A stretch of 64,000 bases of DNA. Source: Candidatus Dormiibacterota bacterium. Lineage in GTDB: Bacteria; Chloroflexota; Dormibacteria; CF-121. Positions 1 to 17,369 of the stretch are shown here, one piece after another (positions within the stretch are counted from its first letter, which is position 1; each line of letters opens with the position of its first letter). The DNA lies in NCBI GenBank assembly GCA_035544955.1, contig DASZZN010000014.1, positions 196,811 through 260,810 of the forward strand. Reading direction: 5' to 3'. The notes beneath the pieces were generated by a model that was given only the letters and a program-made list of their open reading frames with translations, did not search any database and was not told the DNA's origin. Position numbers and translations under genes: made by a program.

Positions 1-27
1 TTCATCCTTGGGGATCTTGAGGCTGCC

Positions 28-3000
28 ATGCCAACCCACCCTCCGAAGCTTCGGCGCCCAATCAGGGGATACCTTGCGACGCTCACGTGCACGAACGGCT
101 TCGCCCTATGGCTGGCTCCAGCGGGATCCGCTATCACGCTGAAGGCGGTCGGTAATCTCACGCATGCCACCGCGGACCTGGTCTGGGCCGATGGGGAGCG
201 GGTACAAGCGACTGTTGACGGTCAGGCGCAGGAGGTGTCAGTTCAGGCGGAGGGGGCCGGCTGGCGGTTCGGGAACCTTACCGTGCGCCGCGGGCGCACA
301 TCGGACTCGGCCTTGCTTGCTATCTATTTCGCAGAGGGCAGCTGGTTTCCGGTCGAGGCCGGAACGGTCATTGACATCGACAATCAAGCGTTCCTCGTCG
401 AAGCGGACGCCGAGGCCTACCTGGTGAGCCCAGCACGGAACCTCGGCCGCGTTGAGATTGATACATCAGGGGATCCGACCGACGAGCGCATCTTCAAGAC
501 GATTGAGCGCAACCAGGAGCAGCATGACCTGCCCATCTACCTGCAAGGCCAAGGAGACCAGATCCCTGGCCCGGAAGGCCCGGACGAGCCTCCCGATGAG
601 AAGCCTGATGAGCCAATCGACGAGATCAGTCCGGTCCACGCCATGGTCCTGGGCGAATCGGCCGACATCAGGCTGTCGGAGCGCGGGGACGTCGATGAGC
701 TAGAGATGACCGTTGGAGGTCGCCCTTACCGGCTTGCGCCGCAGCAAGTGGGGAGCCTGAACGGCCTTTCGCTGGAGCGCGAGATCCTCGCATCACCGGC
801 TGCGTGGGCGTTCACCGCCGTGAGCGGAGATTCCGGTGGGATCCGGCCGGACGCGTCACTCGAACGAGTCTCGATGGTCGGCGTACCCCAGCGGGAGCTT
901 AATGATTTCCAGCGGTCGCGCAGCGAACTGTTCGCGGCACTGGCGCCGTTTGGCTCGGCTTATGCGGTGATCGACGAGGCGGTGCGTCCTAAGGCTTTTG
1001 CATACGTTCGCGCCTACAAGAAGCTGGTTGAGGCCCTTCCGAAGGCAGGCCGTTACCAGCCGGAATACGACCGGATCCTCCTTATCGACACAGTCTTTTT
1101 AACTGGCGCCGGGGATCGGTACATCGCGCCGACCAACCCGCTAACGATCGCCTTCTATCTGAGCTTCTGGGGAGCTGCGGCAGATTGGTGTGTCGCTGGG
1201 AGCCGCCCATCCGATGCAGATCTGCGGACGATCAGCCCTCGGCATCTTCTGCCGCTCCTCAATGCCGGCGCCATCTGGCATGAAGCAGTCAATTGCGACG
1301 CGTTCCTGTGGCGGCGTTACCAGCCGTTGGTAACGAGCATCCCAGCGATGGACTATGACGATCGCTTCATTGCCCGGAAGCTCGATTTCTTCCTTGATGT
1401 GCACCCGGCCTACAGTGATCCAGACCAGTCGCTGAGCATCTCGCTGTATGAGCCCGGAGATGGCGTGGCAGTAGTGCGAGCTCTCGAAAGGTTCTACTGG
1501 CCCGACTTGACTGCGGAACAGTACGCCAGGCCCAGGCTGCAGCTGAACCTGCTATCCAGAGGGGCGGCCCTGCCGGAGGCGATCGCCCGGCTACTTGGCG
1601 GATCAGGTACCCGCCCAATCGACCATCTTGTCCGATCCCGGGTGACAGTTTCCTCACACGACGCACTGCCGGAACAGGGGTTCGCCAACCTTCCGTTCAG
1701 CCACATTACGTTCGTTCATCGCACAGCAACCGAGCGTCGGCCGGGTCCCGTCAGTCTGGACGAGCGTGCATCGACTTTATTTGTTGCTGGCTTGTGCCCG
1801 GCCTCCCGCCGCGCGTCAACCCGCACACCCAACGGCTGGGAGTTTTACTGGGGAACCTTCGGCGGTGCACTTGTCGGAAGCTTGAACGGGGCAGATGCTG
1901 CCTCCGATCTACAGGCAATCGAACGGCGTTGCCTTGAACTGGTTGGTGGCCAGAACCAGGAGATGCTCCATCAGGGCGAGACCAGGATGCTGGCAACGCG
2001 CGTCAGCTCTAATTTCATGCGGGACGTGTACGCCCGATCCATCTGGGTCGTCCATATGGAACGCCTGATTGGTCTCGAGCTGTTCGAGCCGCAGCCTGGA
2101 TCTCATCAGCGCTATCTCATCCAGTACGAGGAGAGCTTTGCAGGCCTGCCTGGTCTCGACGGGATCACAGCTACGGAGCACGTAGACCCTTATCACAAAG
2201 CGCTGAAGGAGGCGCTCCGCTCGATCGAGATATCGCGGCAGGGGCTCGATCGCCTCTTGAACTTGCTTAATGCCGTCGCCGGTGGATGGGCTCTCGAGCT
2301 CCTACACAGCGGAACGGAGGACGTCCTGGCCATGGTGGGCGTTGTAGCCGCCATAGCGGCCTTGCAGGATCTCGATAATAGCTTCGATCGGAAGGAAGGG
2401 CTTGGTGTCCTTCTCTCCGTTCGCGAGATGCTGGAAGTCCTGCCGGCAACCGTGCGGCCGCCCGATCGATCTGCGTCCGACGATCTCGTCTTCGTCTGGA
2501 TTCCCTTCAACCAGCGAGAGGCTGTTTCCCTAACGGCACGGCTGGTTGAGGTGAAATTCTCAACCCTAGGCCGGCCCGAATTCGCTCTGGCCCGCCAGCA
2601 GCTTGAAAACACGAAGCACTGGCTGGAAGCAACATTCAACTCTCCCGGGCCGGAGCACCTATTTCGAGCCCGAGATATGTCCGAATTCATCCGCGCCGCG
2701 GCAGCCCGCAACCGAACGTTTGGCCTGGGCCCCGCTCCGGATCGTGCCCCGTTTGAGGCCGCACTCGCACTGATTGCGGCGGGTAGCTTTCGAGTCGACG
2801 CGCGGTTCTGGGTCGAGGGGCGCGAACTAGCAAGTGACGTAGTCTCCATCGAGCTAGAAAGTGATTCCGATGCCGTGCGAACCGATCTGCCCGGTGCTGG
2901 TGAGGCGTGCGGCCTGATCCGGCTCGGCAGGCAATGCATAGAGGATCTCGCGGATGGGCGCAGGCTATCGTCAAGCCAGCCCTGGAGCGCACCAGCCTTC

Positions 3001-4209
3001 GCCCAGCCCGGGAAGCCACAAACCTCCAACGAAGCCTCGCCAGCTGCATCCACATCCGCTGGCGCTGGCCAGCCTGGCAGGACTGCCACACCCTCGGTTC
3101 AGCCAGAAGTAGAGGCGGAGGTACGCCGCCTTGCCCGGGAGCTTGATGCCGCCGTCATCAAGTACGATCTCGAGCTCGAGCCGTTCCGTCCGCAACTCGC
3201 CCAGGTGGGGCCCTCGGTAATTAGGTTCAGATCCAAGCCTCTTGGGAAGCAGGCGCTCGAAGGCATTGCGCGCCGGGCCGCTGATCTCGGTAGGGAGGTT
3301 GGCGTGCCGGAGGGCGTGTTAATTGGTCAGGAGCCTTACTACGTGACGGTGGACGTTCCCCGCAGAGAGAGGCAGGTTGTTTACTTCTCCGATCATGTCG
3401 AGAAGCTTTCGGTGGCCCGGCTACCGGGAGCCCTCAGCTTTCTTTTGGGAATCGCGCCGTCCGGCGACGTTGCTGTCGAGGACATCGCTCGTCTGCCGCA
3501 TCTGCTGATCGCCGGCGCGACCGGATCAGGAAAGAGCATCCTTCTCCGGTCTATTCTCTGTTCGCTCCTCCTAGTGCATCCTCCGGATGAGCTGCGTATC
3601 TTCCTCGTCGACCCAAAGCAGATCGACTTCATGCCATTTGAGGATGTGCCTCACCTCGTCAACGGGCGGATCATTACAGATCCCGTTCAAGCTGTTGCGG
3701 ACCTCCAGGAAAACATTGAGGTCGAGCTCTCGCGGCGGCGGCCCATTCTCAAGCGGGCAGGCGTTACAAATGCTCTCGATTTCTATGAGGCGGGCGGAAC
3801 GCGGAAGCAGATGCCGCAGATGGTGATCATGGTTGATGAGTTTGCTGACCTGGCGTCTACGCTCGATCGCACGGGCCGGGCGGCTTTCATGTCGATCATC
3901 CAGCGGTACGGGCAGCTAACTCGTGCATTTGGAATCTACCTGGTCCTGGCCACGCAGCGGCCGAGCGTTCAGGTCATCACAGGCGACATCAAAGCGAATC
4001 TCACAGCACGCGTCGCGCTCAAGCTGCTAGCGCCTCAGGACTCCGTGACCATCCTCGGCCATGGGGGCGCTGAGTCACTGCGAGACAAGGGCGACCTCAT
4101 CTTCGAACATGCTGGTCGGCGGGACCGGCTTCAAGGATTTCTCGTGCGGCCGCAGGACGTTGCTTCCGCGGTCAACCGCTGGAGGCGCGACGGCGGGTCG
4201 GCGCTGTAG
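28..4209 (+). CDS. Giant (1393 aa) FtsK/SpoIIIE-family P-loop ATPase; ~1050-aa N-terminal region of unknown function, C-terminal FtsK-like motor domain
   Basis: Long ORF with GAGG ~6 nt upstream of the ATG at 28. The C-terminal ~310 aa carry Walker A (LLIAGATGSGKS), Walker B (MVIMVDEFADL) and an LATQRPS motif typical of FtsK/SpoIIIE/TraB translocases. The N-terminal region has an acidic low-complexity stretch (PEGPDEPPDEKPDEPIDE), no predicted TM segments and no motif I recognise. Confidence 0.8.
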   Translation: MPTHPPKLRRPIRGYLATLTCTNGFALWLAPAGSAITLKAVGNLTHATADLVWADGERVQATVDGQAQEVSVQAEGAGWRFGNLTVRRGRTSDSALLAIYFAEGSWFPVEAGTVIDIDNQAFLVEADAEAYLVSPARNLGRVEIDTSGDPTDERIFKTIERNQEQHDLPIYLQGQGDQIPGPEGPDEPPDEKPDEPIDEISPVHAMVLGESADIRLSERGDVDELEMTVGGRPYRLAPQQVGSLNGLSLEREILASPAAWAFTAVSGDSGGIRPDASLERVSMVGVPQRELNDFQRSRSELFAALAPFGSAYAVIDEAVRPKAFAYVRAYKKLVEALPKAGRYQPEYDRILLIDTVFLTGAGDRYIAPTNPLTIAFYLSFWGAAADWCVAGSRPSDADLRTISPRHLLPLLNAGAIWHEAVNCDAFLWRRYQPLVTSIPAMDYDDRFIARKLDFFLDVHPAYSDPDQSLSISLYEPGDGVAVVRALERFYWPDLTAEQYARPRLQLNLLSRGAALPEAIARLLGGSGTRPIDHLVRSRVTVSSHDALPEQGFANLPFSHITFVHRTATERRPGPVSLDERASTLFVAGLCPASRRASTRTPNGWEFYWGTFGGALVGSLNGADAASDLQAIERRCLELVGGQNQEMLHQGETRMLATRVSSNFMRDVYARSIWVVHMERLIGLELFEPQPGSHQRYLIQYEESFAGLPGLDGITATEHVDPYHKALKEALRSIEISRQGLDRLLNLLNAVAGGWALELLHSGTEDVLAMVGVVAAIAALQDLDNSFDRKEGLGVLLSVREMLEVLPATVRPPDRSASDDLVFVWIPFNQREAVSLTARLVEVKFSTLGRPEFALARQQLENTKHWLEATFNSPGPEHLFRARDMSEFIRAAAARNRTFGLGPAPDRAPFEAALALIAAGSFRVDARFWVEGRELASDVVSIELESDSDAVRTDLPGAGEACGLIRLGRQCIEDLADGRRLSSSQPWSAPAFAQPGKPQTSNEASPAASTSAGAGQPGRTATPSVQPEVEAEVRRLARELDAAVIKYDLELEPFRPQLAQVGPSVIRFRSKPLGKQALEGIARRAADLGREVGVPEGVLIGQEPYYVTVDVPRRERQVVYFSDHVEKLSVARLPGALSFLLGIAPSGDVAVEDIARLPHLLIAGATGSGKSILLRSILCSLLLVHPPDELRIFLVDPKQIDFMPFEDVPHLVNGRIITDPVQAVADLQENIEVELSRRRPILKRAGVTNALDFYEAGGTRKQMPQMVIMVDEFADLASTLDRTGRAAFMSIIQRYGQLTRAFGIYLVLATQRPSVQVITGDIKANLTARVALKLLAPQDSVTILGHGGAESLRDKGDLIFEHAGRRDRLQGFLVRPQDVASAVNRWRRDGGSAL

Positions 4210-5958
4210 CTTTGGATGATCGTCGCTCGGCGCTAGCAAGCCGTCTTCCTCCATCAGGCCACGGATATGAGCGGCGATTCTTCGCGCAAGGGCGGGAGGT
4301 ACTGCGTTAGCGACCTGAAGCGGCTGCGTTGAGCGCGGCCCGCAGAAGACATAGGTATCCGGGAAACCCTGGATGCGGGCGGCTTCACGGACGGAGATAG
4401 TGCGGTTGAGAACCGGGTGCACAGGAAACGCACGGTGTCCCGCAATCAGCGTCGGGGCGAGGTCAGTCCCCAGGCGACGGTACGAGATCGGACCCTTACC
4501 CGATCCCTTGATACGCGCGATTTTGGCGACGACGGCAGCGCTGTGCGCCATCGTGGAGGCATTAAGAAGGACAGTCCCATTGTCCTGGTGGGCGTATTCC
4601 GCAATCGTTCCCGATGGAAGCCAGGGCAGATCCTCGAGCGCCCTCATCAGCCGGCCCTCCACCGGTTGCACTACGGGCGCTGGAGGCGCTGGCGGAGGAG
4701 CGTCCTTAATATTGCGGCGACGACCGAGGAAAATAAACCGCTTCCTTACTTGAGCGACCCCGAAGTCTGCGGCATTCAGCAGATATTCCCCGGCTGCATA
4801 ATGACTTCTTCCAAGGGAAACCCTCACGCCGTGGAGGAAGCTGAAGCCTTGGACATTCTTCAGACCTGGCACGTTTTCGATGACGATATAGGCCGCATTC
4901 AGCTCCCGAGCGAGCCGAGATACATGCTTGAACAAGACGTTCTTGGGGTCGTTCGCTTGACGGGCGCCCGCGGCTGAATAGCCCTGGCATGGCGGCCCCG
5001 CAAGAAGGACAGCAGGTTCGCCAACGCCCGGTACGAGCCGCCTGACATCGAAAGCTTTAAGCCGCGTCACATCCGCCTCGACAACGGGCACGCCAGGGTG
5101 ATTGGCGCGGTACGTCTGGGCAGCATTGCGGTCCAGCTCAACCGCAAGAGCGATTTGGAAGCCTTCCTGGCGGCAACCAGTCCCAAAGCCACCTGCACCA
5201 GCGAAGAGCTCGACAGCGACCGGATGACGGTCATCCCGGCTTAGTACGCGCCCGGTCCGGCAGAACGAGACCAGCACACACCTATCGCACTTCGGCCTCT
5301 GGCTCGTACATATGGCTCGTCCGTGGTGGACCAGATTCATGTGGAGGCGTTTGCGTATGGCGGGCGTGATCGCGCTCTCGAGCGGGTCGTGGTCCGCCTT
5401 GCGGTTTCCGGTTGTCAATATGCCCAGCCGCTCGACGATTCTGTGCACGTGAGTGTCTACCGCGAACCGCTTTCGGTCGAGCGAATAGGATTGTATGCAG
5501 CGAGCGCTCTTGGGACCGATTCCTGGAAGCGCGTCTAGAAATCTTTCGGCAGCAGCGTCGGACATTGTTCGCAGGTGATCGAGCGTTAGATCTCTTGGTG
5601 GGCTTGCGTATGGCCCTATCTTGCGAGCTTCGTTGTCCGCGCGAACCGCCTCGAGGATCCCGACCAGCTCCCGGGTTCTCGCCCGGTGGAAACCGCCGGG
5701 ACGAAGAAGTTCCCTGAGGTCGGTCGGCCTAGCCGAAAGGACATCCATCCATCTCGGGTAGCGGGCGCGGAGCTTTCTGAACAGCTTCTGATAACAGTCT
5801 TCGCGTGTTTGCCGGCTAAGCAAAATGTAGACCGTCTCGGCAAGCGGGTCTGTGAGATTGCCCAGATCAGCTGACCTGTATGTCACCTCGAGAAGCTCGT
5901 CGATGCGTTCAAGCGTTTGGGCCTGGGTTAGCTCTACCATCGGGCTCTTCCGCCTCAT
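4075..5958 (-). CDS. Fusion protein: N-terminal HhH-GPD (endonuclease III/Mig-like, [4Fe-4S]) DNA glycosylase + C-terminal DNA (cytosine-5) methyltransferase
   Basis: HhH motif LPGIGPKSARCI, catalytic Asp in FAVDTHVHRIV, and a C-x6-C-x2-C-x5-C cluster loop (CTSQRPKCDRCVLVSFC). C5-MTase motifs follow: I (FAGAGGFG), IV (GPPCQGYS), VI (IENVPGL) and X (QVANAVPP). The ORF runs to 6030, but the ATG at 5958 overlaps the upstream gene's TGA (ATGA), so I take the start as 5958. Confidence 0.85.
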   Translation of the reverse strand: MRRKSPMVELTQAQTLERIDELLEVTYRSADLGNLTDPLAETVYILLSRQTREDCYQKLFRKLRARYPRWMDVLSARPTDLRELLRPGGFHRARTRELVGILEAVRADNEARKIGPYASPPRDLTLDHLRTMSDAAAERFLDALPGIGPKSARCIQSYSLDRKRFAVDTHVHRIVERLGILTTGNRKADHDPLESAITPAIRKRLHMNLVHHGRAICTSQRPKCDRCVLVSFCRTGRVLSRDDRHPVAVELFAGAGGFGTGCRQEGFQIALAVELDRNAAQTYRANHPGVPVVEADVTRLKAFDVRRLVPGVGEPAVLLAGPPCQGYSAAGARQANDPKNVLFKHVSRLARELNAAYIVIENVPGLKNVQGFSFLHGVRVSLGRSHYAAGEYLLNAADFGVAQVRKRFIFLGRRRNIKDAPPPAPPAPVVQPVEGRLMRALEDLPWLPSGTIAEYAHQDNGTVLLNASTMAHSAAVVAKIARIKGSGKGPISYRRLGTDLAPTLIAGHRAFPVHPVLNRTISVREAARIQGFPDTYVFCGPRSTQPLQVANAVPPALARRIAAHIRGLMEEDGLLAPSDDHPKLQRRPAVAPPAVDRGSNVLRPHEKSLKPVPPTSMFEDEVALVSQ

Positions 5959-6155
5959 CCCTGCGACCCCGGGTGCGGCGACCTTAGGCGCGCCCACGTG
6001 AGAACATCGGCCTTTCGATAGCGGTAGCACCCGCCAACCTTAGTAAAGGGAAGGCCGCTCGCCTTTCTGAGACGCCACAAGGTGGTGCGGGACGCCTTCA
6101 GGAACTTCCGGAGCTCAGCGTCGGTCAAGAGCTCGTCCGATTCTAGATCACGCAT
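5955..6155 (-). CDS. AlpA/Xis-like small HTH DNA-binding protein (prophage regulatory/excisionase family)
   Basis: 66-aa protein with LLTDAELRKFLKASRTTLWRLRKASGLPFTKVGGCYRYRKADVLTW, matching the AlpA-type HTH. Its stop overlaps the MTase start codon (ATGA). Confidence 0.7.
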   Translation of the reverse strand: MRDLESDELLTDAELRKFLKASRTTLWRLRKASGLPFTKVGGCYRYRKADVLTWARLRSPHPGSQG

Positions 6156-6225: not shown

Positions 6226-7371
6226 CTACATAAGGAATTCCGTCATGAGGCGGGCTGCTTCGCGCTGCATGTCTGGTGTGACGTGCGAGTAGACATCGAG
6301 GGTGATAGCAACGGTGGCATGGCCGAGCATCTCGGCGACGATCTTCGGGTGTATGCCGCGGCTGAGCATTAGCGTTGCGGCCGTGTGCCGAAGATCATGG
6401 AACCGGATCGTCGGCAACCCAGCCTTTCTAAGGAGCGGACGGAAGGCACGTCGCACGACCCACTCTGCCGACAGCGGTCGGCCGAGCTCATCACAGAAGA
6501 CGAGCGTCGTGTCCACCCAGGCCGGGCCGGCTTGCAGGTTTTCCGCAGCCTGAGCCGTTCGGTGTCGGCGAAGAGCCGCAACGGCTTGGTCGGTGAGCGC
6601 GATCTGGCGGCGCGAACGCGCGGTCTTGGGCTCGGTAATAGCGGGTCCGTTTGGCCCTGGCGCCAGCGTTGCCGTCACCCTCGCGGCCGCACGGTCGAGG
6701 TCGAGCTCTGGCCATCTGAGAGCGAGGAGCTCGCCTTGCCGCATGCCCGTAGTCGCGGCCAGGACCCATAGCGCTTCGAGGCGCTCGCCGACGGCAGCCT
6801 CGAAGAGGGCGGCAACGTTTTCGCCGGAAAGAGTCCGCATTTGCGGGCAGGCCATCTTTGGCGGGCGGACTAGACCGGCCGCGTTCCGCGGCACCAAACC
6901 CCAGCGGACCGCGTCCTCAAGTGCCCGATGCAGCACGGCCTGCGCGTGATGAACGGAGGTCGGGCTTGCGCCTCCAGTGAGCATCCGTTCCTGCATCGTC
7001 CGAATATGAAGCGGACCCAGGCGGACGAGCGGGATTCTGCCGATGGCGGGCACGATATGGACTCGGAGGTACTTCTCGTACCGGATCCACGTCGAGAACC
7101 GCAGGTGCGGACGCATGCCAGGCAGCCAGTTCCGCAGGAAACTGCCAGCCGTTTCACGCGTTGGTCGTTGGTGGAGGCCGTCTTCGCGGGCCTTGAGGCC
7201 GGCCATCAGGCGGCGGTGAACCTCAGGCCGCGACTTGCTCACGAAACGATGGCGGTGGCCATCGACCGTGTAGGCAATTTCCCAACGACCGTCCTTGCGC
7301 TCATAGAGGGTACCGTCGCCATTGGCGCCCTTCCTTTTCCGAGTGGTCTTTCGCGAACGTGTATCAATCAT
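6226..7371 (-). CDS. int: Tyrosine site-specific recombinase (phage-type integrase)
   Basis: C-terminal catalytic signature IRFHDLRHTAATLMLSRG...LGHATVAITLDVYSHV (R/HxxR/Y box), an N-terminal SAM-like DNA-binding region, 381 aa. Confidence 0.9.
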   Translation of the reverse strand: MIDTRSRKTTRKRKGANGDGTLYERKDGRWEIAYTVDGHRHRFVSKSRPEVHRRLMAGLKAREDGLHQRPTRETAGSFLRNWLPGMRPHLRFSTWIRYEKYLRVHIVPAIGRIPLVRLGPLHIRTMQERMLTGGASPTSVHHAQAVLHRALEDAVRWGLVPRNAAGLVRPPKMACPQMRTLSGENVAALFEAAVGERLEALWVLAATTGMRQGELLALRWPELDLDRAAARVTATLAPGPNGPAITEPKTARSRRQIALTDQAVAALRRHRTAQAAENLQAGPAWVDTTLVFCDELGRPLSAEWVVRRAFRPLLRKAGLPTIRFHDLRHTAATLMLSRGIHPKIVAEMLGHATVAITLDVYSHVTPDMQREAARLMTEFLM

Positions 7372-7434: not shown

Positions 7435-7749
7435 TCAAGGGCGTTTCTTAGGCGTGTCCCAGGAGTCGTGCGCGATGCGGCGAGATTTATGTCGGCTGAG
7501 TCTCGACAGGCTTTCATCTGCGCCTTCAAGGTGCTGCCAGATCCAGTCCTGCAACGCCTCTCGTGGGACACGAACCGATCGACCGATCCGAACCACGGGC
7601 AGCTCGCCGGTTCTTACCAGGGCGCACACCTTGGTCCGACCAAGCCCAAGCGTCGTCGCCACCTCGGTGATTCGTAATAGCAGCGGTTCCATCTTCTCGA
7701 CGTCGCTCGCTACCGACAGGTCCTCAGCCGAAGGCGTTTGGTCCCTCAT
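7435..7749 (-). CDS. xis: Excisionase-family/MerR-like HTH DNA-binding protein
   Basis: 104 aa with LLRITEVATTLGLGRTKVCALVRTGELPVVRIGRSVRVPREALQDWI (excisionase-type HTH). It sits immediately upstream of int on the same strand. Its start overlaps the stop of the upstream ORF by 4 nt. Confidence 0.7.
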   Translation of the reverse strand: MRDQTPSAEDLSVASDVEKMEPLLLRITEVATTLGLGRTKVCALVRTGELPVVRIGRSVRVPREALQDWIWQHLEGADESLSRLSRHKSRRIAHDSWDTPKKRP

Positions 7750-8102
7750 TGCTTCGACGCTTCAGCCCACAGGGGAAGGGAGACGAAGCCAATCCGGTCA
7801 AGGGATCGGATGAAGGTCTGGTCCGAGGCAACGTTGATGGTGGCGCCATCGCGGTCAGCGATCGAGAGCGCGTCCCCGCTGGCGCCGGCGAGGAGCTTGA
7901 CATCGTCCGCGAGGCGAAGGCGGGTGATCAGCCGGTCTTCCGCACTTCCTTGCTCGTGGCCCGGATCATCCAGGAGAGCCGCAACGAGGCCGCGGAAGCT
8001 GTCCGCCTCGCAACCCCGGAGGAAAACGCCGTCTCCGACCGGATGGAAGAGCATGCGAAGCGGCAGCTCTTGCTGGTCGGCCGGATGGATGGGCCGGTAC
8101 AT
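7746..8102 (-). CDS. Hypothetical 118-aa protein, distal gene of the ligase operon
   Basis: ORF begins 2 nt after the amidoligase stop and overlaps the xis start by 4 nt. No recognisable motif. Confidence 0.35.
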   Translation of the reverse strand: MYRPIHPADQQELPLRMLFHPVGDGVFLRGCEADSFRGLVAALLDDPGHEQGSAEDRLITRLRLADDVKLLAGASGDALSIADRDGATINVASDQTFIRSLDRIGFVSLPLWAEASKQ

Positions 8103-8103
8103 G

Positions 8104-9390
8104 TCAGGCGGCTGCCCCTCGGCGCGTCCGTTGCCAGGCTGACCGCTGGTAGACCCAATAGAGCTTTAACTTGTCCTGCGGCCGGACGAAGATCAGGTCG
8201 GCAAAGCGGCGCAGCAAGCGATCGCCGTCGTCGGGATCGCGTGGGCTGCGGTGACTCCCGAGCGTATGTCGCTCCGGCGGGATGGCCGCGTCGGGCAGCT
8301 CGGCTGCGCGCTTGGTCACCCAGCAGGCCAGCTTGATGTTGGCCTGCAGGCGAACGGGGTCGAGGCTCGAGTCAAAGTACCGATACTCGATCGTCCGATT
8401 GCGGTCCAGGATGTTGCCGAAGTTCAAGCCAACCGAATGGCTGCTACCGACTCGGTTGGCAAGATCGCTGAGGCCCTGGACCTCTTCGAACTGGCCGGAG
8501 CCCATGGGACCACACCAGCGGTAGCCATTGGTACTGCCGCGGTGGCTGCGTCCCCGCTGACCCGTCGCGGCAGCTAGACGGTACATGAGATCCTCCGCCC
8601 AGGCGCACACCTTCGCGACGCGTCGGAATTTGTTCACGTCGTGGTCCATGCCGGCGGAGTCGACCCCCACGTGGACATGCCCACCGGTTCGGCCGGTCGC
8701 TCTCGCTCCGTGCGCTTGCAGGATCTGGCAGACGCGTTCCAGCTGGGCCCACGCCTCGGGGGTGTCCTGGAGGACCGGGCTTACGACCTCGCCCGAAACG
8801 GTGGCGTCGTGCTCAAGCGTCCATTTGCCGGCTACGCGGCTGCTCGAGTGGTATGGCTCCTGGCGAGCGCTCGACGTGAGCCCCGCTTCGTGCAGTGCCC
8901 GAGCGACGGCATTGGGGTCGGCACCGTCGAACTCGATCTCGATACCGAAGGTCTGGTTGGGGTCGCCGATGACGTTCTCGCGCTCATAGCTGGCTGCTTG
9001 TCCGGTCATGGCCAGCCGTTTGAGCTCTCGATGCAGGGCCTCATTGGCCACCAGCGATCGCTCGCCTTCGGGCACCTCCTGTCCCTGAATCCGGAGGAAT
9101 TCGTCCCAGAGCCGCTGGGCCTGCTGCTGCTCTCGGTCCGTGCGCTCCCGCTGCTCCTGATATCTGGCAACCGCTCGGCTGTAGAGCTCGGCCCACTCGG
9201 GCGTGCCGACTGGCGGGTCATCGTCAACGATCGGGGTGGAGGCGACGACCGCCACCGCTGCTCCAAGAACCTCTGGGGCCTGGGCGATAGCGAGAGCGGG
9301 ACCGCCCCGGCCGGATGCTTGGACGGAGACGGCACCATCAGCGACGGCAATCGTGCCGTGCGACGCTCGACTTCCACCCTTGCTCGGCAT
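8104..9390 (-). CDS. Amidoligase (Amidoligase_2 / GCS2-like carboxylate-amine ligase family)
   Basis: Motifs TFGIEIEFDG, TLEHDATVSGEVVSPVL and TGGHVHVGVD match the glutamine-synthetase-like amidoligase/YbdK signature (GxExE ... EivSP ... HvHvg). The start codon directly abuts the stop of the ATP-grasp gene (9391). N-terminal peptide MPSKGGSRAS. Confidence 0.65.
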   Translation of the reverse strand: MPSKGGSRASHGTIAVADGAVSVQASGRGGPALAIAQAPEVLGAAVAVVASTPIVDDDPPVGTPEWAELYSRAVARYQEQRERTDREQQQAQRLWDEFLRIQGQEVPEGERSLVANEALHRELKRLAMTGQAASYERENVIGDPNQTFGIEIEFDGADPNAVARALHEAGLTSSARQEPYHSSSRVAGKWTLEHDATVSGEVVSPVLQDTPEAWAQLERVCQILQAHGARATGRTGGHVHVGVDSAGMDHDVNKFRRVAKVCAWAEDLMYRLAAATGQRGRSHRGSTNGYRWCGPMGSGQFEEVQGLSDLANRVGSSHSVGLNFGNILDRNRTIEYRYFDSSLDPVRLQANIKLACWVTKRAAELPDAAIPPERHTLGSHRSPRDPDDGDRLLRRFADLIFVRPQDKLKLYWVYQRSAWQRTRRGAAA

Positions 9391-10764
9391 CTACCCGGCA
9401 CGAGCCAGCCGTCCGCGCAGCGTCTGTTGGATATGCGCATAAACACTCTTGACCGTTTCCGCCGACATGCCCGGCGCAGCGTTTGCCTCTAGGCAATACA
9501 CCCGGTCGGTCTGCAGGTCCTCGATCACGTCCACGCCCGCGTAATCGAGGCCGACGCGGCGAGCGCCTTCGCGTGCCACGGCCGCGACAGAGCGCGGGAT
9601 GACCTGCGACCGTTCGAAGCTCCACTCCGGCCGCAGATCGTCGGGGGTAGCACCTTCCGGAGGTCGCTTCAGGTAGGCGGAGACAATCCGGCCGGAGAGC
9701 ACCGACACTCGATACTCGCGGCGATCGGGGATGAACTCCTGGAAGCAGTCGTAGCCAGCGCGCTCGGCCTGCGGCCCATCGGCCGGGAGCAGCGCCTTCC
9801 CGCTGCCCCGTGACCCGTGCCGACGCTTGCCGACGACGTGGTTCGAGCCAAGCAACGCGAGGTCTCCCGGATTAACGACGGTCCGCGGCGCGAGCTCGCG
9901 CAAACGCCCCAGCGACTCCACCTGGTCGGAGGCAACCCGGACGGCCTCCGGCTGGTTGAGCGCGACGGCCTCTTGAGGCAGCGGCTGAACAGATCCCCAG
10001 TTGAGGATCAACGCAGGGGAGCCTCCCGGAGGAACTTCCCTGGCGTCTCGAACAATCCGAATCTGGGCGCCCTGCGACGCAACGGCTTCGATGTTGTGTG
10101 CCATAGCCTCGGAAGGGATCGAGGATGGGACCAGGACACACACCGGTACGTCATCCCGGGACGGAGCAAAGGCAATCTCCCGGATTCGCACGCTTCCTGA
10201 TGGTTGATTGGGCGGTGCCTCTGCGCCGGCGACCAAGCCGTGCGGTCGTTGGCTCGCGATTGCGAGCAGGCGCGTCATCGCTTGCTCCTCGGCGGATGGT
10301 TCAACCGCGTATCCTGCCGACAATCCAGCCTCCCGCCGCGCGGCTTCGAAGGTGCGCAGTTCCTGGCGGCGTTGGCGGAAGTCGTCGAGCGCCTGCCGGA
10401 GTGATTCCTCGTCCCCGCTACCAGCGATTCGCTCCAGTTTCCGCAGGCGGGCCAGCACCCGGCGGAGGCGATACCGGTAAAGCTCGTCCGATTCTTCCGG
10501 GCTGAGGCTCCCCTGGCGAGCGGAGAGCTCGTTGAATCGGTCGACCTCCGGACCTCGCCGCAGTCCACGTGCCAGCTCGGCAGCGTCGAAGGCGGGCGCG
10601 AGGAGATCTATAGCCTCCGGCGTCCCGGAGCTCATCGGTTCCGCCGTGTCGGAGGGAATCGAGGAGACGTGCGGTTGAGCAATCTCGTCAAGACCGGGGA
10701 GCGACACGGAGAGCGGTCCCGCGCCGCCGCCGCCCGACGCCCTGCTCCCGCGCTTAGATGGCAT
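9391..10764 (-). CDS. ATP-grasp family ligase (RimK/glutathione-synthetase-like C-terminal domain) with ~200-aa N-terminal region of unknown function
   Basis: C-terminal motifs VVGKRRHGSRGSGKAL, GYDCFQEFIPDRREYRVSVL and VYCLEANAAPGMS (the E-x-N ATP-grasp signature). The ORF extends to 10809, but I prefer the internal start at 10764 (MPSKRGSRAS...), which mirrors the amidoligase N-terminus and overlaps the upstream gene by only 11 nt. Confidence 0.7.
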   Translation of the reverse strand: MPSKRGSRASGGGGAGPLSVSLPGLDEIAQPHVSSIPSDTAEPMSSGTPEAIDLLAPAFDAAELARGLRRGPEVDRFNELSARQGSLSPEESDELYRYRLRRVLARLRKLERIAGSGDEESLRQALDDFRQRRQELRTFEAARREAGLSAGYAVEPSAEEQAMTRLLAIASQRPHGLVAGAEAPPNQPSGSVRIREIAFAPSRDDVPVCVLVPSSIPSEAMAHNIEAVASQGAQIRIVRDAREVPPGGSPALILNWGSVQPLPQEAVALNQPEAVRVASDQVESLGRLRELAPRTVVNPGDLALLGSNHVVGKRRHGSRGSGKALLPADGPQAERAGYDCFQEFIPDRREYRVSVLSGRIVSAYLKRPPEGATPDDLRPEWSFERSQVIPRSVAAVAREGARRVGLDYAGVDVIEDLQTDRVYCLEANAAPGMSAETVKSVYAHIQQTLRGRLARAG

Positions 10765-11941
10765 CTGCAAGCCTGTCTTCGTCGAGGAGTGCGCCGTAGG
10801 TGCGGTCATTGTGGGCGCAATTCAGCAGGAAGCAATTGCGAGCCGAGCGAGCGACGGCCGTCCCGTGTTCCGTTCCCAGGAGACGTCGTCGCTGGGCGAG
10901 CGCGTAGGCCATGCCATTGCAGATCACCAGGCGCCGGCCGGGAGCCGCGCGTCGGTAGGCGGCCAACCGATCCGGCGCATGGACGCCCCCAAGGAGGAAG
11001 GTGACATCGTGCCGCACCGCCTGGTGAAAGAGCGCAATGTCTTCCAGCGTCTCGCGCAGCGCCCGCTCACTGGCGTGGACTTTGCGGCCGTCGCAGAAGA
11101 GCGAGACGGCCGTCAAGGACGGCTGGCTGTTGACCCAGTCAGCCCACAGCTGGCCGTCGGGCTCGAACCGGCTCCAGCCGATGTCAGCGATGGCGGGCAG
11201 CCCAGCCTCGATCAGCTCGTGGAAGAAGATGAACGAGCGGCGTTGCTGAATGAGCTGCTCAAAGCGCGAGTGGTCGTACCAGACGGAGAAGTTCGGCGCC
11301 AGGATCAGGTCGAAACCGAGTCCTCGGAGTTCCTGGATGACCGAGCGGCGATTCAACCAGAGCCCCTCAAGCACGCGATCTTCCACAAAGCACTCCAGTG
11401 CGACCTTCGTGGCGGGGCCCAGCCGGTACACCTCTCGAAGAGGCCGATGGTGCTTGGGCGTGATCCGACTTCCTGTAACCCCGAACACCCGGCCTGCATG
11501 AAGGGCCACCCACGGAATATCCACCGGGTCGGCGTATGCCTGGATCAGCACGGGGAGATGGACAGGCAGGTCCACGGGTTGGTGATGGACGATCGGGCGC
11601 CGCCACGTGAGGTCGAGGCCGCCCAGTTGATTGCTAACGGCTTGGCGGACATCCATACGAAGAAGGGGATTGGTCAGGCAGAGGGCGCACCGATCGTTGC
11701 CGGTGGGGCCATCGCGATGTCCGACCCGGCAGAAGTTGGGTGTCTTTCCGCATCGAGCAGCGGCCGGACAGAGATCACAATTCAGGCCGCAGGCTGAAGC
11801 CACCTCAGGACTCCTCCTCGAAGGCGCTGATGGCCTGCCGGAGGTCAACGAGGACATTGACGACGCCCTGGCATTCGCTCGGCGATAGGCGGCGTCGAAT
11901 ATTGGCGAGCGTCCGGGCGAGTTGGCGGCAGAGGTCGACAA
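10754..11941 (-). CDS. Cys-rich protein of unknown function (N-terminal 7-Cys cluster including CxxxCxxC; possible Fe-S/Zn-binding enzyme)
   Basis: 395-aa ORF co-directional and overlapping with the ATP-grasp gene. It contains ACGLNCDLCPAAARCGKTPNFCRVGHRDGPTGNDRCALC and a second Cys/His patch near the C-terminus (VICNGMAYA...NCFLLNCAHN). The first ~45 aa are low-complexity, so the true start may be the internal MSSLTSG. Confidence 0.5.
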   Translation of the reverse strand: MSTSAANSPGRSPIFDAAYRRANARASSMSSLTSGRPSAPSRRSPEVASACGLNCDLCPAAARCGKTPNFCRVGHRDGPTGNDRCALCLTNPLLRMDVRQAVSNQLGGLDLTWRRPIVHHQPVDLPVHLPVLIQAYADPVDIPWVALHAGRVFGVTGSRITPKHHRPLREVYRLGPATKVALECFVEDRVLEGLWLNRRSVIQELRGLGFDLILAPNFSVWYDHSRFEQLIQQRRSFIFFHELIEAGLPAIADIGWSRFEPDGQLWADWVNSQPSLTAVSLFCDGRKVHASERALRETLEDIALFHQAVRHDVTFLLGGVHAPDRLAAYRRAAPGRRLVICNGMAYALAQRRRLLGTEHGTAVARSARNCFLLNCAHNDRTYGALLDEDRLADAI

Positions 11942-12768
11942 CGATCCCGAGCTGAACCTCGAAGGCGAGCCGGTCTTCCGCCGGCCCAGCGGTGCCGCCC
12001 TCGGCGGTGAGGGCTGCCTCCACCGTTAGGTGCCGATCCTGTCGAAGGCGGTCCACCGCCGCGTGGACTTGGTTGTGGGTGAGGCGGCCAGGTCGGTAAA
12101 CCAGGGCCGCCTGTCGCTCCGGATCATCCAGGCGGGCGATCTGGATTGCGTGCTCAGCCGGCAGGTGGCGCACCCCATCCTGAAGGTGGGGGTCCAGGCG
12201 CAGGATCCTGACCTTGTCCTTGCGCGCCGTCTCCGAAATCCGTAGCGCCCTCTCGGTGTCGCGCCAGCGGGCAAGCGGTTTCGGGACCAGCCCGCCTTCG
12301 AACTTCATCAGGTGAACGTTCTGGGCGATCAGCAGTTGCTTGAGGCCGTCAAGGTGTTCGGTGAAGCCGCCCCGAGTCGTGATGTGCCTCTCGTCTAAGG
12401 GCTGGAAGGGGACAATCGCGTCCCGGAGGAGTTGCTCGGCGACCGTGATGTCGCGGAGTGTCTTGTCCAGCAGAATGCAGTGGGCCTCCTCCACGGGATC
12501 GAGGTCGGAGCGAAGCTGGTTCTCCTCGTACTGTTTCTCGAGGCGCTCGAGGTAGCGCAGCCGAGGATGAAGGCGGGCCAGGACCTGGCTGATGCCCGCC
12601 GCCCGCGCCGCCCGCCACCGCTGCTCGCCGCACACGATCTCGATATCGGCCCGGCGTTCCTGCCGCCGGCTCGACCTCCAGCAGCGGCTGATGGCGCCCC
12701 GCCTTCATCGAGGCCGCGAGCTTGTCGACCAGGTCCATCGACCGTGCCCCTCCTTCGGTTGGGTCCAC
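11805..12768 (-). pseudogene. ParB/Srx-like nuclease-domain protein, disrupted by a frameshift (or sequencing error) near 12640-12650
   Basis: The upstream frame (ORF 12349..12768) gives MDLVDKLAASMKAGRHQPLLEVEPAAGTPGRY, the ParB N-terminal box. The downstream frame (ORF 11805..12635) continues as (D)IEIVCGEQRWRAARAAGI, the GxRRxRAA ParB motif. The two frames join if a single C is removed in ...GRY|EIVCGEQ.... Confidence 0.6.
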
Positions 12769-12847
12769 GACCTCAGAGAGCTACCCCGATCCGGCCCCCA
12801 TTCGCGACCGGGATGCGGGAACTGCACCAGGCAGATTTGATCCCTCG

Positions 12848-13699
12848 TCATTCTCTGCTTGATGGCTGGGAGTCGCCACTCTCCCTCAAAAACTGCGAAA
12901 GTGTGGCACCGAGTTCCTGCTCGCCCCGCCGGCCTAAGCCGGTCGGCCGCACAAGCGGCAGATTCCACCCCATTACCCAGACGGCCTTGGCTCGTTGTCG
13001 AGAGATAGAAGCCCACCAGGTAAGGCGACCAAGCCTCGATTCCGCAACCTGCATCGCTCCGAGGATGCGACCTACCTCAACGTAAACGCCTCGGCCGTTG
13101 CAAAGAAGTGCGGTCGCTGGAAGCGCGGCCACCTGCCACCGAAAGAATTCGGTGTCTGTTGCCCAGAGGGCTGCCGCCTCGGCCGGCCAAGTGCGACCTA
13201 GCTCCGACCACGTTGGGAAGGTCGCCTCCTGGATCAGGTCTAGGTGAACCGCCATTCCAGTGGCGTACGAGATGCCCATCCCGTCAAGCACGTTATTCAT
13301 GTGACCGAACCACCGACCAAAGGTGGGTCGGCCGGGGTCGAAGTAATGCCTCATCGTTTCGATTGCTCGTTCGCACTGTAGATCGCTGAGAGTGTCGCGG
13401 CCAACTGCACCCAGCGAAGTTAGCGTTTCGAAACGTCGGACATTGGAGCCATCGAGCTCAATTAGTCGAGCGCTGTCAGATCGACCGGCGTGTCGTGCGT
13501 ATTCGCGGTACGAAGGGTTGATGGCCACAGTCGCTGTGATGGCCCGGTCTGGATCGCCGAAGAAGAGAACGGGAAGCGACCTGGGCACCGAGTGTGGCGA
13601 TGGAGCTGCTCGCAAGCGCTGGTTGAGGTTCCGCTTCTGCGAAACCGTAAAGGCCTCCGATGGGCGGGCGCGGCTCGTATCACACTCTGCCATAGACAT
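12848..13699 (-). CDS. Hypothetical protein (283 aa)
   Basis: Long minus-strand ORF in the same co-directional array. Protein-like composition, no motif recognised. Confidence 0.4.
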   Translation of the reverse strand: MSMAECDTSRARPSEAFTVSQKRNLNQRLRAAPSPHSVPRSLPVLFFGDPDRAITATVAINPSYREYARHAGRSDSARLIELDGSNVRRFETLTSLGAVGRDTLSDLQCERAIETMRHYFDPGRPTFGRWFGHMNNVLDGMGISYATGMAVHLDLIQEATFPTWSELGRTWPAEAAALWATDTEFFRWQVAALPATALLCNGRGVYVEVGRILGAMQVAESRLGRLTWWASISRQRAKAVWVMGWNLPLVRPTGLGRRGEQELGATLSQFLRESGDSQPSSRE

Positions 13700-13708
13700 C
13701 GGTCGGGT

Positions 13709-14422
13709 TCATGAATTCTTCTTGGGCGAGGACCCTACGCTGCCGAGTCGCGGGTTAGTGGGAAGGCCCTGGGCCTTGGCTTCCCGGTAGTAACCGCGGC
13801 TCTCTGCCTCCATCCATATAAGAACTTCAAGGATCCTTACCGGCGTGACGACGTATCCGCCCTTCACCAGATCATCTCTCAGGGCCTTTATCTCGGTCAG
13901 GTTTGCCCGGAGATCCTCTCGGAAAGCACGCCATGCGGGCATCGTTGCCTGGGCGGCTTTCGTCTTGTCCTGAAGTCTGCCTTGGGTTGACTTCAAGTGG
14001 AGCGCATCGAGATAGAAGAGCACCACCACTGAGTCGAGCATCGGGATATAGTTCCGCCTCTTGCGATGTAGCACTTTTGTTGCTACGGCAGACAGCACGC
14101 CGGGTACCGAGATGGCTGCGCTCAGAAGCGACTCGCCAACTTCTAAATCCGGGTCGAATATCAGGATGTCGGCGTCTACCGGGATTCGCGGGAGTAGCGG
14201 ATCGCAAGCAGCGGCCATCCCACGGTGAACCTTCTGGACCTTTTCTCCAGTAGCCACTCGAGAGTTCATAGAGACTGTCACAAGGATGTCGAGAGGTTCA
14301 ATGCGGTTCGGATCATTCGTTGGGATTGCATCGTAGTACGCGTACTCATTCGGAAAGAAGCGCAAAAGGCGATCCCTGCAGTTCGACAGACTGGGCCCGC
14401 TAGGCAGCTGCAGGTTCATCAA
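13709..14422 (-). CDS. Hypothetical protein (237 aa)
   Basis: Lower-GC ORF directly upstream of 12848..13699 on the same strand. No recognisable motif. Confidence 0.4.
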   Translation of the reverse strand: MMNLQLPSGPSLSNCRDRLLRFFPNEYAYYDAIPTNDPNRIEPLDILVTVSMNSRVATGEKVQKVHRGMAAACDPLLPRIPVDADILIFDPDLEVGESLLSAAISVPGVLSAVATKVLHRKRRNYIPMLDSVVVLFYLDALHLKSTQGRLQDKTKAAQATMPAWRAFREDLRANLTEIKALRDDLVKGGYVVTPVRILEVLIWMEAESRGYYREAKAQGLPTNPRLGSVGSSPKKNS

Positions 14423-14472
14423 ACGGAGAACATTCCGTTCCGAGTCCCTACCATTCCGTAGCGCGGGTCCGA

Positions 14473-14904
14473 TCAGGCATCATCGGTGCGTAGATATAGG
14501 AGTGACCCTGAGGTCCTGAACAGCCCGAGTATTGGGCTAGGGGCACCCGCCAGCTTCGTCAGGCATGGCAAATTCAGGCCTACGAATTGCTGCTCGGACG
14601 ACATACAGCTGTCAAAGACCGAGCGTATGCTTGCCTCCGTCCAGGATTTGAAATTTAGGGTAGGTAGGTGATGAAACTGGATTCGGAAGTCTGCCGGTGC
14701 TTTGCGGGCGGGTTGTTTCCGCCGATTAGAGTCGGTTTTCGCTCGATCGGGCAAGGCTACCGCAGCGAGGACGATTATCGCGAGTTCGATCATGAAGGTC
14801 ATCGAGGGTGGTGCATCACTAAGCATGAAGGTCATTGCAACCCTGAGCATATTCCTATACGCGAAATCGACTAAGCCTAGGAGGAACACCCAAGATGCAG
14901 ACAT
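14473..14904 (-). CDS. Hypothetical small protein (143 aa), possibly membrane-associated
   Basis: ORF in an AT-richer segment with a hydrophobic stretch (MIELAIIVLAAVALP). Weak support. Confidence 0.25.
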   Translation of the reverse strand: MSASWVFLLGLVDFAYRNMLRVAMTFMLSDAPPSMTFMIELAIIVLAAVALPDRAKTDSNRRKQPARKAPADFRIQFHHLPTLNFKSWTEASIRSVFDSCMSSEQQFVGLNLPCLTKLAGAPSPILGLFRTSGSLLYLRTDDA

Positions 14905-15305
14905 TTGAGGGTGCGCTAATCCGAGAGCAAGGCGTGGCGTTCGGGGTCGTCGTCTGCCGACGAGGCCTCCCGAACAGAGACAAGACGGTGCTTATGGAAA
15001 GCGTAAGTCGCATCTTTGGCCGCGTACCGGTCGTAGCCATGGAGCAGGATCACCGGGGCGTGCCGACATACTATGGGCGCACTGACTTGGTTCGTTTCTT
15101 GGCCTCGGTTCCGATGGAAGCCATTCCTTGGAAGAAATACACGATCACCTAGGGGCGTCCTTTTCATGATCGACGATCCGTTGGAAACCCGGGTGCTCAC
15201 CAAGAAGCTTCGACAGACGGCACTTGCTGCCGGCGTCCTTCGGAGCCGCTCGGGGAGCGACCAAGCGGCGCATTAACGAGATTCCAGCTACGATTCCCAC
15301 GTAAA

Positions 15306-16238
15306 GTGGCGGTCCCCGATTTTCAGTCCATCATGCTTCCCTTCCTCCAGTCGCTGGCAGATGGTCAACAACAGCGAACGCGGGAGCTAATGCCTCGGCT
15401 TGCGTCGCAGTTTCACCTCTCAGATACGGACCTTCGGCAGCTGCTGCCAAGCGGCACGCAGCGTGTCTTCGAGAACCGCGTCTACTGGGTGAGCAGCTAT
15501 CTAAGGCACGCAGGGCTGATCGAGAGCCCGCAACGCGGGGTTGTCCGGATCACGGAAAATGGGCGCAAGGTCCTAGCTAATCCCCCGGATCGCATCACCG
15601 TCGGATATCTGATGCGACTTCCCAGCTTCCAACCATTCGGAAGCCAAACGACCGCGGCAGGCGGCTTAGGTATAGGACACGTGCCCCCCGCCGTCAAGGC
15701 TTCAGATAGAACACCTGAGGAAGATCTCGAAGCGACCTGGCTCACGATTCGCGACGCGCTGGGTCAGGATCTCCTGGGAAGGATCAAGACTTGCTCTCCC
15801 AGTTTTTTCGAACGCCTCGTGGTTGACCTGCTGGTCACGATGGGGTACGGCGGATCTGTCGTCGATGCAGGCCAGAGCGTCGGCATGTCCGGCGACGGTG
15901 GAGTGGACGGAATCATTAAAGAGGACAAACTCGGTCTTGACGTTGTCTACATTCAGGCCAAGCGCTGGGAGGGGCAGGTCGGTCGGCCAGTGGTACAGGC
16001 CTTCGCGGGGAGCCTTGAGGGATTCCGAGCCCGGAAAGGCGTACCGATTACGACCTCGGGATTCTCAGCCGACGCCCGAACCTACGCGAACCAGATCGAG
16101 AAAAGAATCGTGCTCATCGATGGGACCAACCTCGTCCGGCTGATGATGGAGCACGGCGTGGGCGTTACCAGGGCGAAAACCTACGACGTCCAAAGGATTG
16201 ACCTTGATTACTTCGACGAAGAGGCATTATCCGGTTAG
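15306..16238 (+). CDS. mrr: Mrr-family type IV (modification-dependent) restriction endonuclease
   Basis: N-terminal Mrr_N winged helix (MAVPDFQSIMLPFLQS...LRHAGLIESPQRGVVRITENGRKVL). Mrr_cat motif GMSGDGGVDGIIKEDKLGLDVVYIQAKRW (GDGGxDG ... D ... QxK). GTG start. Confidence 0.9.
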   Translation: MAVPDFQSIMLPFLQSLADGQQQRTRELMPRLASQFHLSDTDLRQLLPSGTQRVFENRVYWVSSYLRHAGLIESPQRGVVRITENGRKVLANPPDRITVGYLMRLPSFQPFGSQTTAAGGLGIGHVPPAVKASDRTPEEDLEATWLTIRDALGQDLLGRIKTCSPSFFERLVVDLLVTMGYGGSVVDAGQSVGMSGDGGVDGIIKEDKLGLDVVYIQAKRWEGQVGRPVVQAFAGSLEGFRARKGVPITTSGFSADARTYANQIEKRIVLIDGTNLVRLMMEHGVGVTRAKTYDVQRIDLDYFDEEALSG

Positions 16239-17341: not shown

Positions 17342-17369
17342 CCGGAGTGGTTCCCCATACCGATAATGG

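Follow-up and report, generated by a model that had tools for sequence, protein, structure and literature searches.

A very divergent DndH/DptH-type protein with an FtsK motor, linked to a glycosylase-C5-methyltransferase fusion, in a defence island of Candidatus Dormiibacterota

The first 4.2 kb of the window, as the whole 64,000-nucleotide (nt) stretch analysed here is called, are occupied by a plus-strand gene whose product ends in an FtsK-type DNA motor and which converges on a DNA methyltransferase (MTase) gene. The locus raises the question of what such a motor does at the end of so large a protein, and whether the methyltransferase belongs to the same system. A first-pass annotation had proposed either an atypical conjugative translocase of an actinomycete-type integrative element or the ATPase effector of a methylation-linked defence system similar to BREX (bacteriophage exclusion) and DISARM (defence island system associated with restriction-modification). 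Judged by its sequence, the protein, hereafter H, is a new and very divergent member of the known DndH/DptH family, of the clade that captured its motor from FtsK, and it is very likely the DptH-family subunit of an FGH-type defence module. Probably this module is a highly divergent translocating nuclease of the DndFGH/DptFGH type which, in the clade nearest to the window, uses 5-methylcytosine (5mC) as its self mark.

Extent, domains and family of H

The gene had been called as an open reading frame (ORF) of 1393 amino acids (aa) at positions 28 to 4209. The long plus-strand ORF and its end at 4209 were confirmed, and its start and length were not. The frame is open from the first base of the window to the ATG at position 28 (nine codons with no stop), and the database protein P0001, which is 100% identical to the window protein, is 1672 aa long. 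The window protein corresponds to residues 280–1672 of P0001, with 279 residues upstream of the called start. Both the length of 1393 aa and the "~1050-aa uncharacterised N-terminus" are therefore artefacts of the window edge. The non-motor part of the full protein measures about 1300 aa, matches DndH/DptH models and takes part in an end-to-end alignment with DptH, so it does not lack characterised relatives. The gene and its parts are located in the window as follows.

1..4209, plus strand: dptH/dndH-like gene (H), 3' 4.2 kb; the first codon in the window is about number 271 of 1672, and the ATG at 28 corresponds to codon 280 within the gene
40..543, plus strand: predicted tandem immunoglobulin (Ig)-like beta-sandwich domains, window-protein residues ~5–172
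610..2397, plus strand: middle alpha/beta body, residues 195–790, with a probable target-recognition region and a degenerate, weakly MTase-like Rossmann region
1126–1143 (APTNPL) and 2044–2055 (WVVH), plus strand: family-wide motifs of the middle body, invariants common with DptH
2395..2955, plus strand: PD-(D/E)xK restriction-endonuclease domain, with S-D-D-L at 2476–2493 and V-E-V-K-F at 2545–2559
3103..4140, plus strand: FtsK alpha+beta motor, with Walker A GATGSGKS at 3514–3537, Walker B VDEFADL at 3832–3852 and ATQRPS at 3949–3966; no gamma domain

The C-terminal FtsK/SpoIIIE ATPase, recognised already in the first-pass annotation, was recovered with Pfam PF01580 (E=9.5e-35, residues 1136–1314). 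Over its final ~370 residues, H aligns with the FtsK alpha and beta domains of Escherichia coli and Pseudomonas aeruginosa (PDB 2ius/2iuu, E=1e-47 to 5e-45), 2ius being the best PDB match of the motor (E=1.4e-47); the PDB matches begin at chain residue 38. There is only one ATPase domain, and its Walker A and Walker B motifs are intact.

Ahead of the motor, the AlphaFold model of window residues 1–1091 (predicted local distance difference test, pLDDT, 82.9; predicted template modelling score, pTM, 0.79) starts with two all-beta domains, which Foldseek matched to tandem Ig domains (E=1e-5). For an AlphaFold2 model of residues 195–1000 (pLDDT 86.0, pTM 0.87), nearly all of the 50 best Foldseek matches were S-adenosylmethionine-dependent methyltransferases, weak ones with a best E of 5.5e-3 and a probability of 0.93. 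This weak methyltransferase-like fold is compatible with the "inactive DAM-like" domain of DndH and is no proof of it. The part ahead of the motor, in which the first-pass annotation had suggested looking for a nuclease, contains a PD-(D/E)xK motif: D1097, D1098, E1120 and K1122 (P0001 numbering) are invariant in 19/19 family members. In the model of residues 1–1091, the aspartate pair lies directly before one strand and E-x-K inside the next; this placement fits what is expected of a PD-(D/E)xK fold, and nuclease activity is predicted. Since H carries its own predicted nuclease and DNA-recognition body, it exceeds the plain ATPase effector that had been suggested.

The absence of transmembrane helices holds for the full 1672-aa protein, correction of the start included. 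Its highest Kyte–Doolittle 19-mer value is 1.61 (P0001 residues 1040–1058), and this top-scoring stretch includes glutamate and aspartate and belongs to a helix that is modelled with confidence within the folded body, so that the full H has no convincing transmembrane segment.

The family was collected by a phmmer search with motor-free H (window residues 1–1091) against 1.84 billion representative proteins. It returned 113 proteins at E<=1e-3 and 40 at E<=1e-30; the H family is rare and patchy, a poor fit to a housekeeping gene. The proteins in the weak tail of the search are ~1700 aa long, with bona fide DptH matched at E=3e-7 to 1e-4. Three of these (P0115, P0128 and P0140) were checked and score 687–812 bits against a DptH cutoff of 620.65, which identifies them as bona fide DptH. 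When a profile of 19 family members was compared by hhalign with a profile of 16 weak-tail proteins of the DptH type, they aligned over 1535 columns (10–1692 vs 9–1727) with Prob 100 and E=6.9e-52. This end-to-end alignment indicates that the whole of H is a remote full-length homologue of DptH/DndH, not a protein that merely shares its ATPase. The invariants D1103, D1104, E1125 and K1127 of bona fide DptH parallel D1097-D1098...E1120-V-K1122 of H, and further motif pairs occur at near-equal positions (FSHLTF/YAHLTF, WVVHLD/NWV..D and DGITAT/DAITVT, H first). Among PADLOC models, the C-terminus of H matches SspH (E=8e-53) and its middle part matches five DndH models (best E=9e-19).

Published DndH consists of an inactive SWI2/SNF2-like domain, a helix-turn-helix (HTH) domain, two beta-sandwiches, a target-recognition domain, an inactive DAM domain, a restriction endonuclease and a HerA/FtsK domain (PMC10853773). 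In "clade 2" DndH, the HerA/FtsK domain derives from cellular FtsK, from which it was acquired along with the alpha domain (Rakesh, Aravind & Krishnan, Nucleic Acids Research 2024, PMC10853773), and it is to this type that the motor of H corresponds. With these proteins H has in common a length of ~1700 aa, the DD...EVK nuclease motif, the C-terminal FtsK alpha+beta motor and the place of its gene after F- and G-like partners; its predicted beta-sandwiches and its degenerate, weakly methyltransferase-like body would agree with them as well. It differs in that its loci carry a regulator of the XRE/M78-like type and, in the near clade, a glycosylase-C5-methyltransferase fusion as well. SspH of the SspABCD-SspFGH system (PMC8092258) gave the best PADLOC score and likewise has a C-terminal FtsK-type motor and a three-gene F-G-H restriction module; its match, however, is confined to the motor (model positions 1209–1545 of 1561), whereas the body of H fits DndH models. 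On these sequence grounds the assignment of H to the family is considered firm. The "atypical FtsK" appearance is explained by H being a DndH/DptH-type protein, and the labels "FtsK/SpoIIIE domain-containing" and "DNA translocase FtsK", now given to such ~1700-aa proteins, are misleading.

The operon and the adjoining methyltransferase

About a dozen independent loci, obtained from exact homologue look-ups and a metagenome scan, were surveyed by tblastn. Loci in which the N-terminal part of H is at least 38% identical to that of the window are referred to as the near clade, and those with 31–35% identity as the far clade. At every locus with a visible upstream side, H is the last of four co-directional, often overlapping genes in the order regulator-F-G-H, and no transfer or replication genes precede it. 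The neighbourhood of the homologues, which the first-pass annotation had named as a way to decide between conjugation and defence, therefore shows linkage to a methyltransferase in the near clade and to F and G, not to transfer functions. In the source genome of the window, Logan contig L001 holds the C-terminal 219 aa of G directly upstream of H, ending 20 nt inside it.

The first gene encodes a regulator of ~270 aa with an XRE-type HTH and an M78-peptidase/ImmA-like domain. In all eight distinct proteins, from nine loci, the HExxH motif is replaced by (L/I)AHxxxH, which has no glutamate; the regulators of L004 and L005 are one protein with differing called starts. Matches to CapH/CapP and RmrA are weak. 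By its sequence, this protein is probably a non-catalytic sensor or regulator. Its genes lie at the following positions of their contigs.

L002: 3362–4201
L004: 5790–6581
L005: 5742–6581
L006: 5766–6608
L088: 5754–6560
L089: 5745–6551
L090: 5755–6579
L091: 5720–6559
L092: 5685–6512

The second gene product, F (~600 aa), possesses an invariant GSAGGGKS Walker A motif, a cysteine cluster and weak, P-loop kinase-like matches to nucleotide kinases, and its N-terminus matches DndF/DptF (PADLOC E=7e-11). The third, G (~540 aa), matches DptG, SspG and MAD7, the last with ~32 vs 410 bits; two G proteins exceed the DptG cutoff of 20 (29.0 and 20.3 bits).

As the first-pass annotation noted, H converges on a DNA methyltransferase gene. 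The convergent neighbour (METHYLTRANSFERASE) encodes a 621-aa fusion protein, or 651 aa if read from the upstream GTG, and an identical protein is present at NCBI (P0160), where it is annotated from a metagenome-assembled genome of Candidatus Dormibacteraeota (phylum Dormiibacterota).

4075..5940, minus strand: fusion of an endonuclease III (EndoIII)-like helix-hairpin-helix (HhH)-GPD glycosylase with a C5 DNA methyltransferase; counted from the ATG at 5940 it has 621 aa, and the open frame extends further, to a GTG at 6030 (4075..6030)
~5257–5892, minus strand: glycosylase, the N-terminal part of the fusion
~4246–5223, minus strand: C5-MTase, the C-terminal part
4075..4209: tail-to-tail overlap of the H and MTase genes, 135 nt; such an overlap, of 129–135 nt, marks all convergent loci (L001 5525–5659, L002 12561–12689 and L092 15017–15151)

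Pfam recognises DNA_methylase (E=3e-51), HhH-GPD (E=8e-10) and the FeS loop, and the NCBIfam dcm model is matched with 147 bits against a cutoff of 100.65. The best PDB match of the glycosylase is Deinococcus radiodurans EndoIII-1 (E=8e-23), compared with just 2e-6 for Mig (1kea). The HhH lysine (GIGPKSA), the catalytic aspartate (VDTHVHR) and the C-x6-C-x2-C-x5-C loop for a 4Fe-4S cluster are retained. Motifs I, IV, VI, VIII and X of C5 methyltransferases are present (FAGAGG, PPCQGYS, ENVPGL, QVRKR and ANAVPP), and the enzyme looks active by these motifs.

The fusion stands beside H in 8/8 near-clade loci (window/L001, L002, L004, L006, L090, L091, L092 and L096). It is upstream and co-directional in four of them (L004, L006, L090 and L091), and downstream and convergent in the others. 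Across near-clade H proteins that span 38–100% identity, the identity of the fusion is 52–68% and tracks that of H. Of the far-clade loci, L094 carries a plain C5-MTase, placed convergently, and L097 is truncated. A tail of ~50 aa is absent from the methyltransferase where its gene is co-directional with H; its occurrence in the convergent arrangement only implies that the tail was overprinted on the antisense strand of the conserved H C-terminus. By convergent transcription across the overlap, restriction and modification could be expressed in a coordinated way.

Relatives of the fusion greatly outnumber those of H: >120 clusters formed at 90% identity share at least 54% identity with the window fusion, and nearly all of them contain both domains. 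The size of this family, together with the use of the fusion by other machineries, indicates a portable 5mC module of which the FGH near clade is one user. No description of a glycosylase-MTase fusion was found in the searchable literature.

Weighing of the alternatives

Several observations weigh against the reading of the locus as a DndFGH-type nuclease with a 5mC self mark. Concerning the family, the identity of H to DptH in the hhalign alignment is just 14%, and H falls far under the curated DptH cutoff (NCBIfam TIGR03237, 45.6 vs 620.65 bits, model positions 817–1062 only). F is below the DptF cutoff (21–32 vs 50 bits), and 2/4 G proteins are under that of DptG (17.5 and 15.7 bits). In the source genome itself, the view of the partners is limited to the last 219 aa of G, with F and the regulator beyond the end of contig L001. 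Concerning methylation, the far-clade loci L088 (Sphaerisporangium), L089 (Actinacidiphila) and L098 have HTH-F-G-H and no MTase within reach, so methylation is not obligatory for the H family. Finally, two fusions 56% identical to that of the window adjoin unrelated helicase-based systems, namely a DEAD/ResIII helicase with a GHKL ATPase in L100 and a YjiV_N/Helicase_C/MZB helicase in L101, each with an N6/N4-MTase in addition. Adjacency by itself is thus no proof of partnership.

These last observations lend themselves to another explanation, in which the operon is a stand-alone DndFGH-type counter-invader system and the glycosylase-MTase is a passenger, which would belong to another system or be an orphan or anti-restriction methyltransferase of the mobile element. 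In its favour, the authors of PMC10853773 argue that DndFGH and modification are mostly uncoupled, the far-clade loci L088, L089 and L098 have no MTase within reach, and homologous fusions also adjoin other systems. Against it stand the adjacency in all eight near-clade loci over 38–100% H identity, its persistence through a rearrangement between the upstream co-directional and the downstream convergent position, the divergence of the fusion in step with H, and the plain C5-MTase in the same convergent position in L094. This explanation is regarded as unlikely, though it is the best of the alternatives.

It is improbable that the locus is a phosphorothioate-dependent DptFGH/SspFGH with its dnd or ssp modification genes elsewhere in the genome. 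All named relatives of H are phosphorothioate-associated, including the SspH and DndH models matched in PADLOC, and only 64 kb of the source genome is visible. Neither the scanned ORFs of the window nor the 10-kb flanks of the related loci gave a match to a dnd or ssp modification gene, a difference from both DndH/DptH and SspABCD-SspFGH systems, and SspH is matched only over the motor. Moreover, in a published survey all eight dnd genes occurred in only 316/1798 DndFGH-bearing taxa (PMC10853773).

Still less probable is that the locus belongs to MADS (methylation-associated defence system) and that H is a MAD8 joined to a larger protein. MADS of P. aeruginosa (preprint 10.1101/2023.03.30.534895) is likewise a multigene defence based on methylation, in which the regulator is an HTH protein, MAD7 resembles DptG and MAD8 resembles FtsK; regulator, methyltransferase and FtsK-like ATPase occur in both systems. 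The precomputed Pfam family PF26611 (MAD7) matches G proteins, and PADLOC matches mad8 on the motor of H (E=3e-21) and mad7 on G (E=4e-6). The match to mad8 is nevertheless restricted to the motor, the NCBIfam MAD7 score of G is far below its cutoff, and neither H nor its F/G partners match mad6 in PADLOC. MADS comprises eight genes with a small, 314-position MAD8 and an N6-MTase with specificity subunit and kinase, and recognises a bipartite TCAGNNNNTCC motif; the H locus, in contrast, has a C5-MTase-glycosylase fusion and one giant protein that is DptH-like over its full length.

That H is a TraB-like conjugative translocase of an integrative element, or else the septal FtsK, is hardly tenable in spite of its FtsK motor and the nearby integrase and excisionase-like genes: H scores 32.7 against the TraB cutoff of 800 bits and 168.9 against 1566 bits for FtsK (PRK10263, matched only up to position 1264 of 1355), has a restriction-nuclease motif and full-length DptH homology, is always preceded by DptF- and DptG-like genes, and belongs to a rare and patchy family. 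Its alpha+beta ATPase is 30–35% identical to cellular FtsK (2ius, 2iuu) and keeps the Walker A/B and Q/R motifs. True FtsK matches carry PF09397 (gamma) and PF13491 (the four-transmembrane domain), and the H family lacks both; H is without the four-transmembrane anchor, the linker and the gamma domain that reads FtsK-orienting polar sequences, and bears a 1300-aa nuclease/recognition body ahead of the motor. The host, moreover, appears to be a metagenome-assembled genome of Candidatus Dormiibacterota, not an actinomycete.

Two further candidates were rejected. The type VII secretion ATPases EccCa (114.5 vs 509 bits) and EssC (93.6 vs 778 bits) do not fit the single ATPase domain or the F, G, regulator and MTase contexts. 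As for BREX and DISARM, no Brx, Pgl or DrmA–C match was found for H or its F/G partners in PADLOC; the neighbouring methyltransferase alone resembles DrmMII/DruM, as any C5-MTase would. The idea of a methylation-linked defence stands in so far as the C5-MTase fusion accompanies H throughout the near clade, and its relatives are to be sought in DndFGH/SspFGH and, loosely, in MADS.

A DndFGH-type nuclease with a 5mC self mark thus remains the preferred reading. With the nuclease and motor motifs of H intact and the F and G partners conserved, an F-G-H translocating nuclease is the economical model, and the observed homology, domain content, catalytic motifs and gene linkage allow its mode of action to be sketched by analogy. 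Characterised DndFGH has nickase and translocase activities (PMC11662687). F, G and H would likewise form a complex, which would load on DNA through G and the body of H; the FtsK motor would translocate DNA using ATP, and DNA without the self mark would be nicked or cut. In the near clade, 5mC written by the adjacent C5-MTase would be the protecting mark that blocks restriction. That 5mC is the self mark appears somewhat favoured, and we infer that methylation gates the nuclease. The fused EndoIII-like glycosylase would most plausibly repair deaminated or oxidised 5mC, paying the mutational cost of the mark. The XRE/M78-like regulator, encoded first in the operon in both clades, would probably control expression in the manner of a restriction-modification controller or an ImmR/CapH-type repressor. 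The more specific evolutionary statement, that a clade of DndFGH-type nuclease-translocases swapped phosphorothioate for a 5mC self mark written by a portable MTase with its own EndoIII-like repair glycosylase, has about an even chance of being right.

The system is not categorically new, because MADS, which couples methylation to FtsK- and DptG-like proteins, and DndFGH uncoupled from phosphorothioate are already known. No published account was found in which a DndFGH-type module is consistently paired with a C5-MTase-EndoIII fusion and an XRE/M78-like regulator, and the text of PMC10853773 mentions no glycosylase and no C5-MTase partner for DndFGH. The way in which DndFGH discriminates self from foreign DNA is debated. 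In the 2024 reappraisal, most DndFGH were uncoupled from phosphorothioate modification and proposed to act without a modification partner (Rakesh et al., PMC10853773). If the proposed reading is true, the near clade would be the first DndFGH lineage to have base methylation as an obligate partner and would provide a simple genetic handle on the self/non-self question. Because only a single C5-MTase gene is linked to it, such a clade would allow a two-component test for the reading of a base mark by the body of DndH. The MTase-EndoIII fusion, for its part, would be an apparently widespread, self-repairing 5mC module reused by several restriction machineries.

The island around the locus

The window, from a metagenome-assembled genome of Candidatus Dormiibacterota, forms an island of defence and mobile genes. 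The mobile setting, already seen in the first-pass annotation, is borne out by the genes that follow the methyltransferase, and other defence genes lie beyond them.

6226–7371, minus strand: tyrosine recombinase, NCBIfam XerC/XerD-like (E=8e-21), adjoining the MTase
7435–7749, minus strand: HTH_17 excisionase-like gene (PF12728, E=3.6e-12)
7746–14422, minus strand: Amidoligase_2, ATP-grasp-like, DUF4417 and further unknown genes
15306–16238, plus strand: Mrr-type methyl-directed type IV restriction enzyme (PADLOC E=4e-85), ~9 kb from the C5-MTase
18244–21527, plus strand: SIR2-APAZ (619 aa) followed directly by short prokaryotic Argonaute (pAgo, 474 aa; PADLOC E=1e-163 and E=2.5e-164)
22826–25192, minus strand: 788-aa MkoA-like helicase, matching only the C-terminal part of Mokosh MkoA models (E=5e-98)

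By their sequences, the tyrosine recombinase and the excisionase-like gene mark a mobile element. At the equivalent place L002 has a serine recombinase, and the same Amidoligase_2, ATP-grasp-like and DUF4417 genes with further unknowns follow at 16755–22689; the recombinase-side block includes DUF6308 in the window and ParB_N in L002. The defence module is probably carried by a mobile element whose backbone is this block. No tRNA gene was found anywhere in the window.

The SIR2-APAZ and short pAgo pair is a SPARSA-type short-Argonaute defence system, and the MkoA-like helicase may be a truncated or variant Mokosh component. Mrr near an active-looking C5-MTase represents a potential epigenetic conflict unless their motifs are compatible. 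Across Mrr, the pAgo system and the MkoA-like gene, the GC-content dips from ~0.63–0.67 to 0.57–0.59 at 14–28 kb, which suggests that the stretch 14000–28000 is a separately acquired segment.

The MTase-less actinomycete FGH loci also lie in defence islands, near restriction genes (L088 24137–25111 and L089 4246–5331). L088 contains NaeI-like and HNH genes and a 1772-aa SACS-like protein, and L089 encodes a ScoMcrA_N-HNH type IV enzyme.

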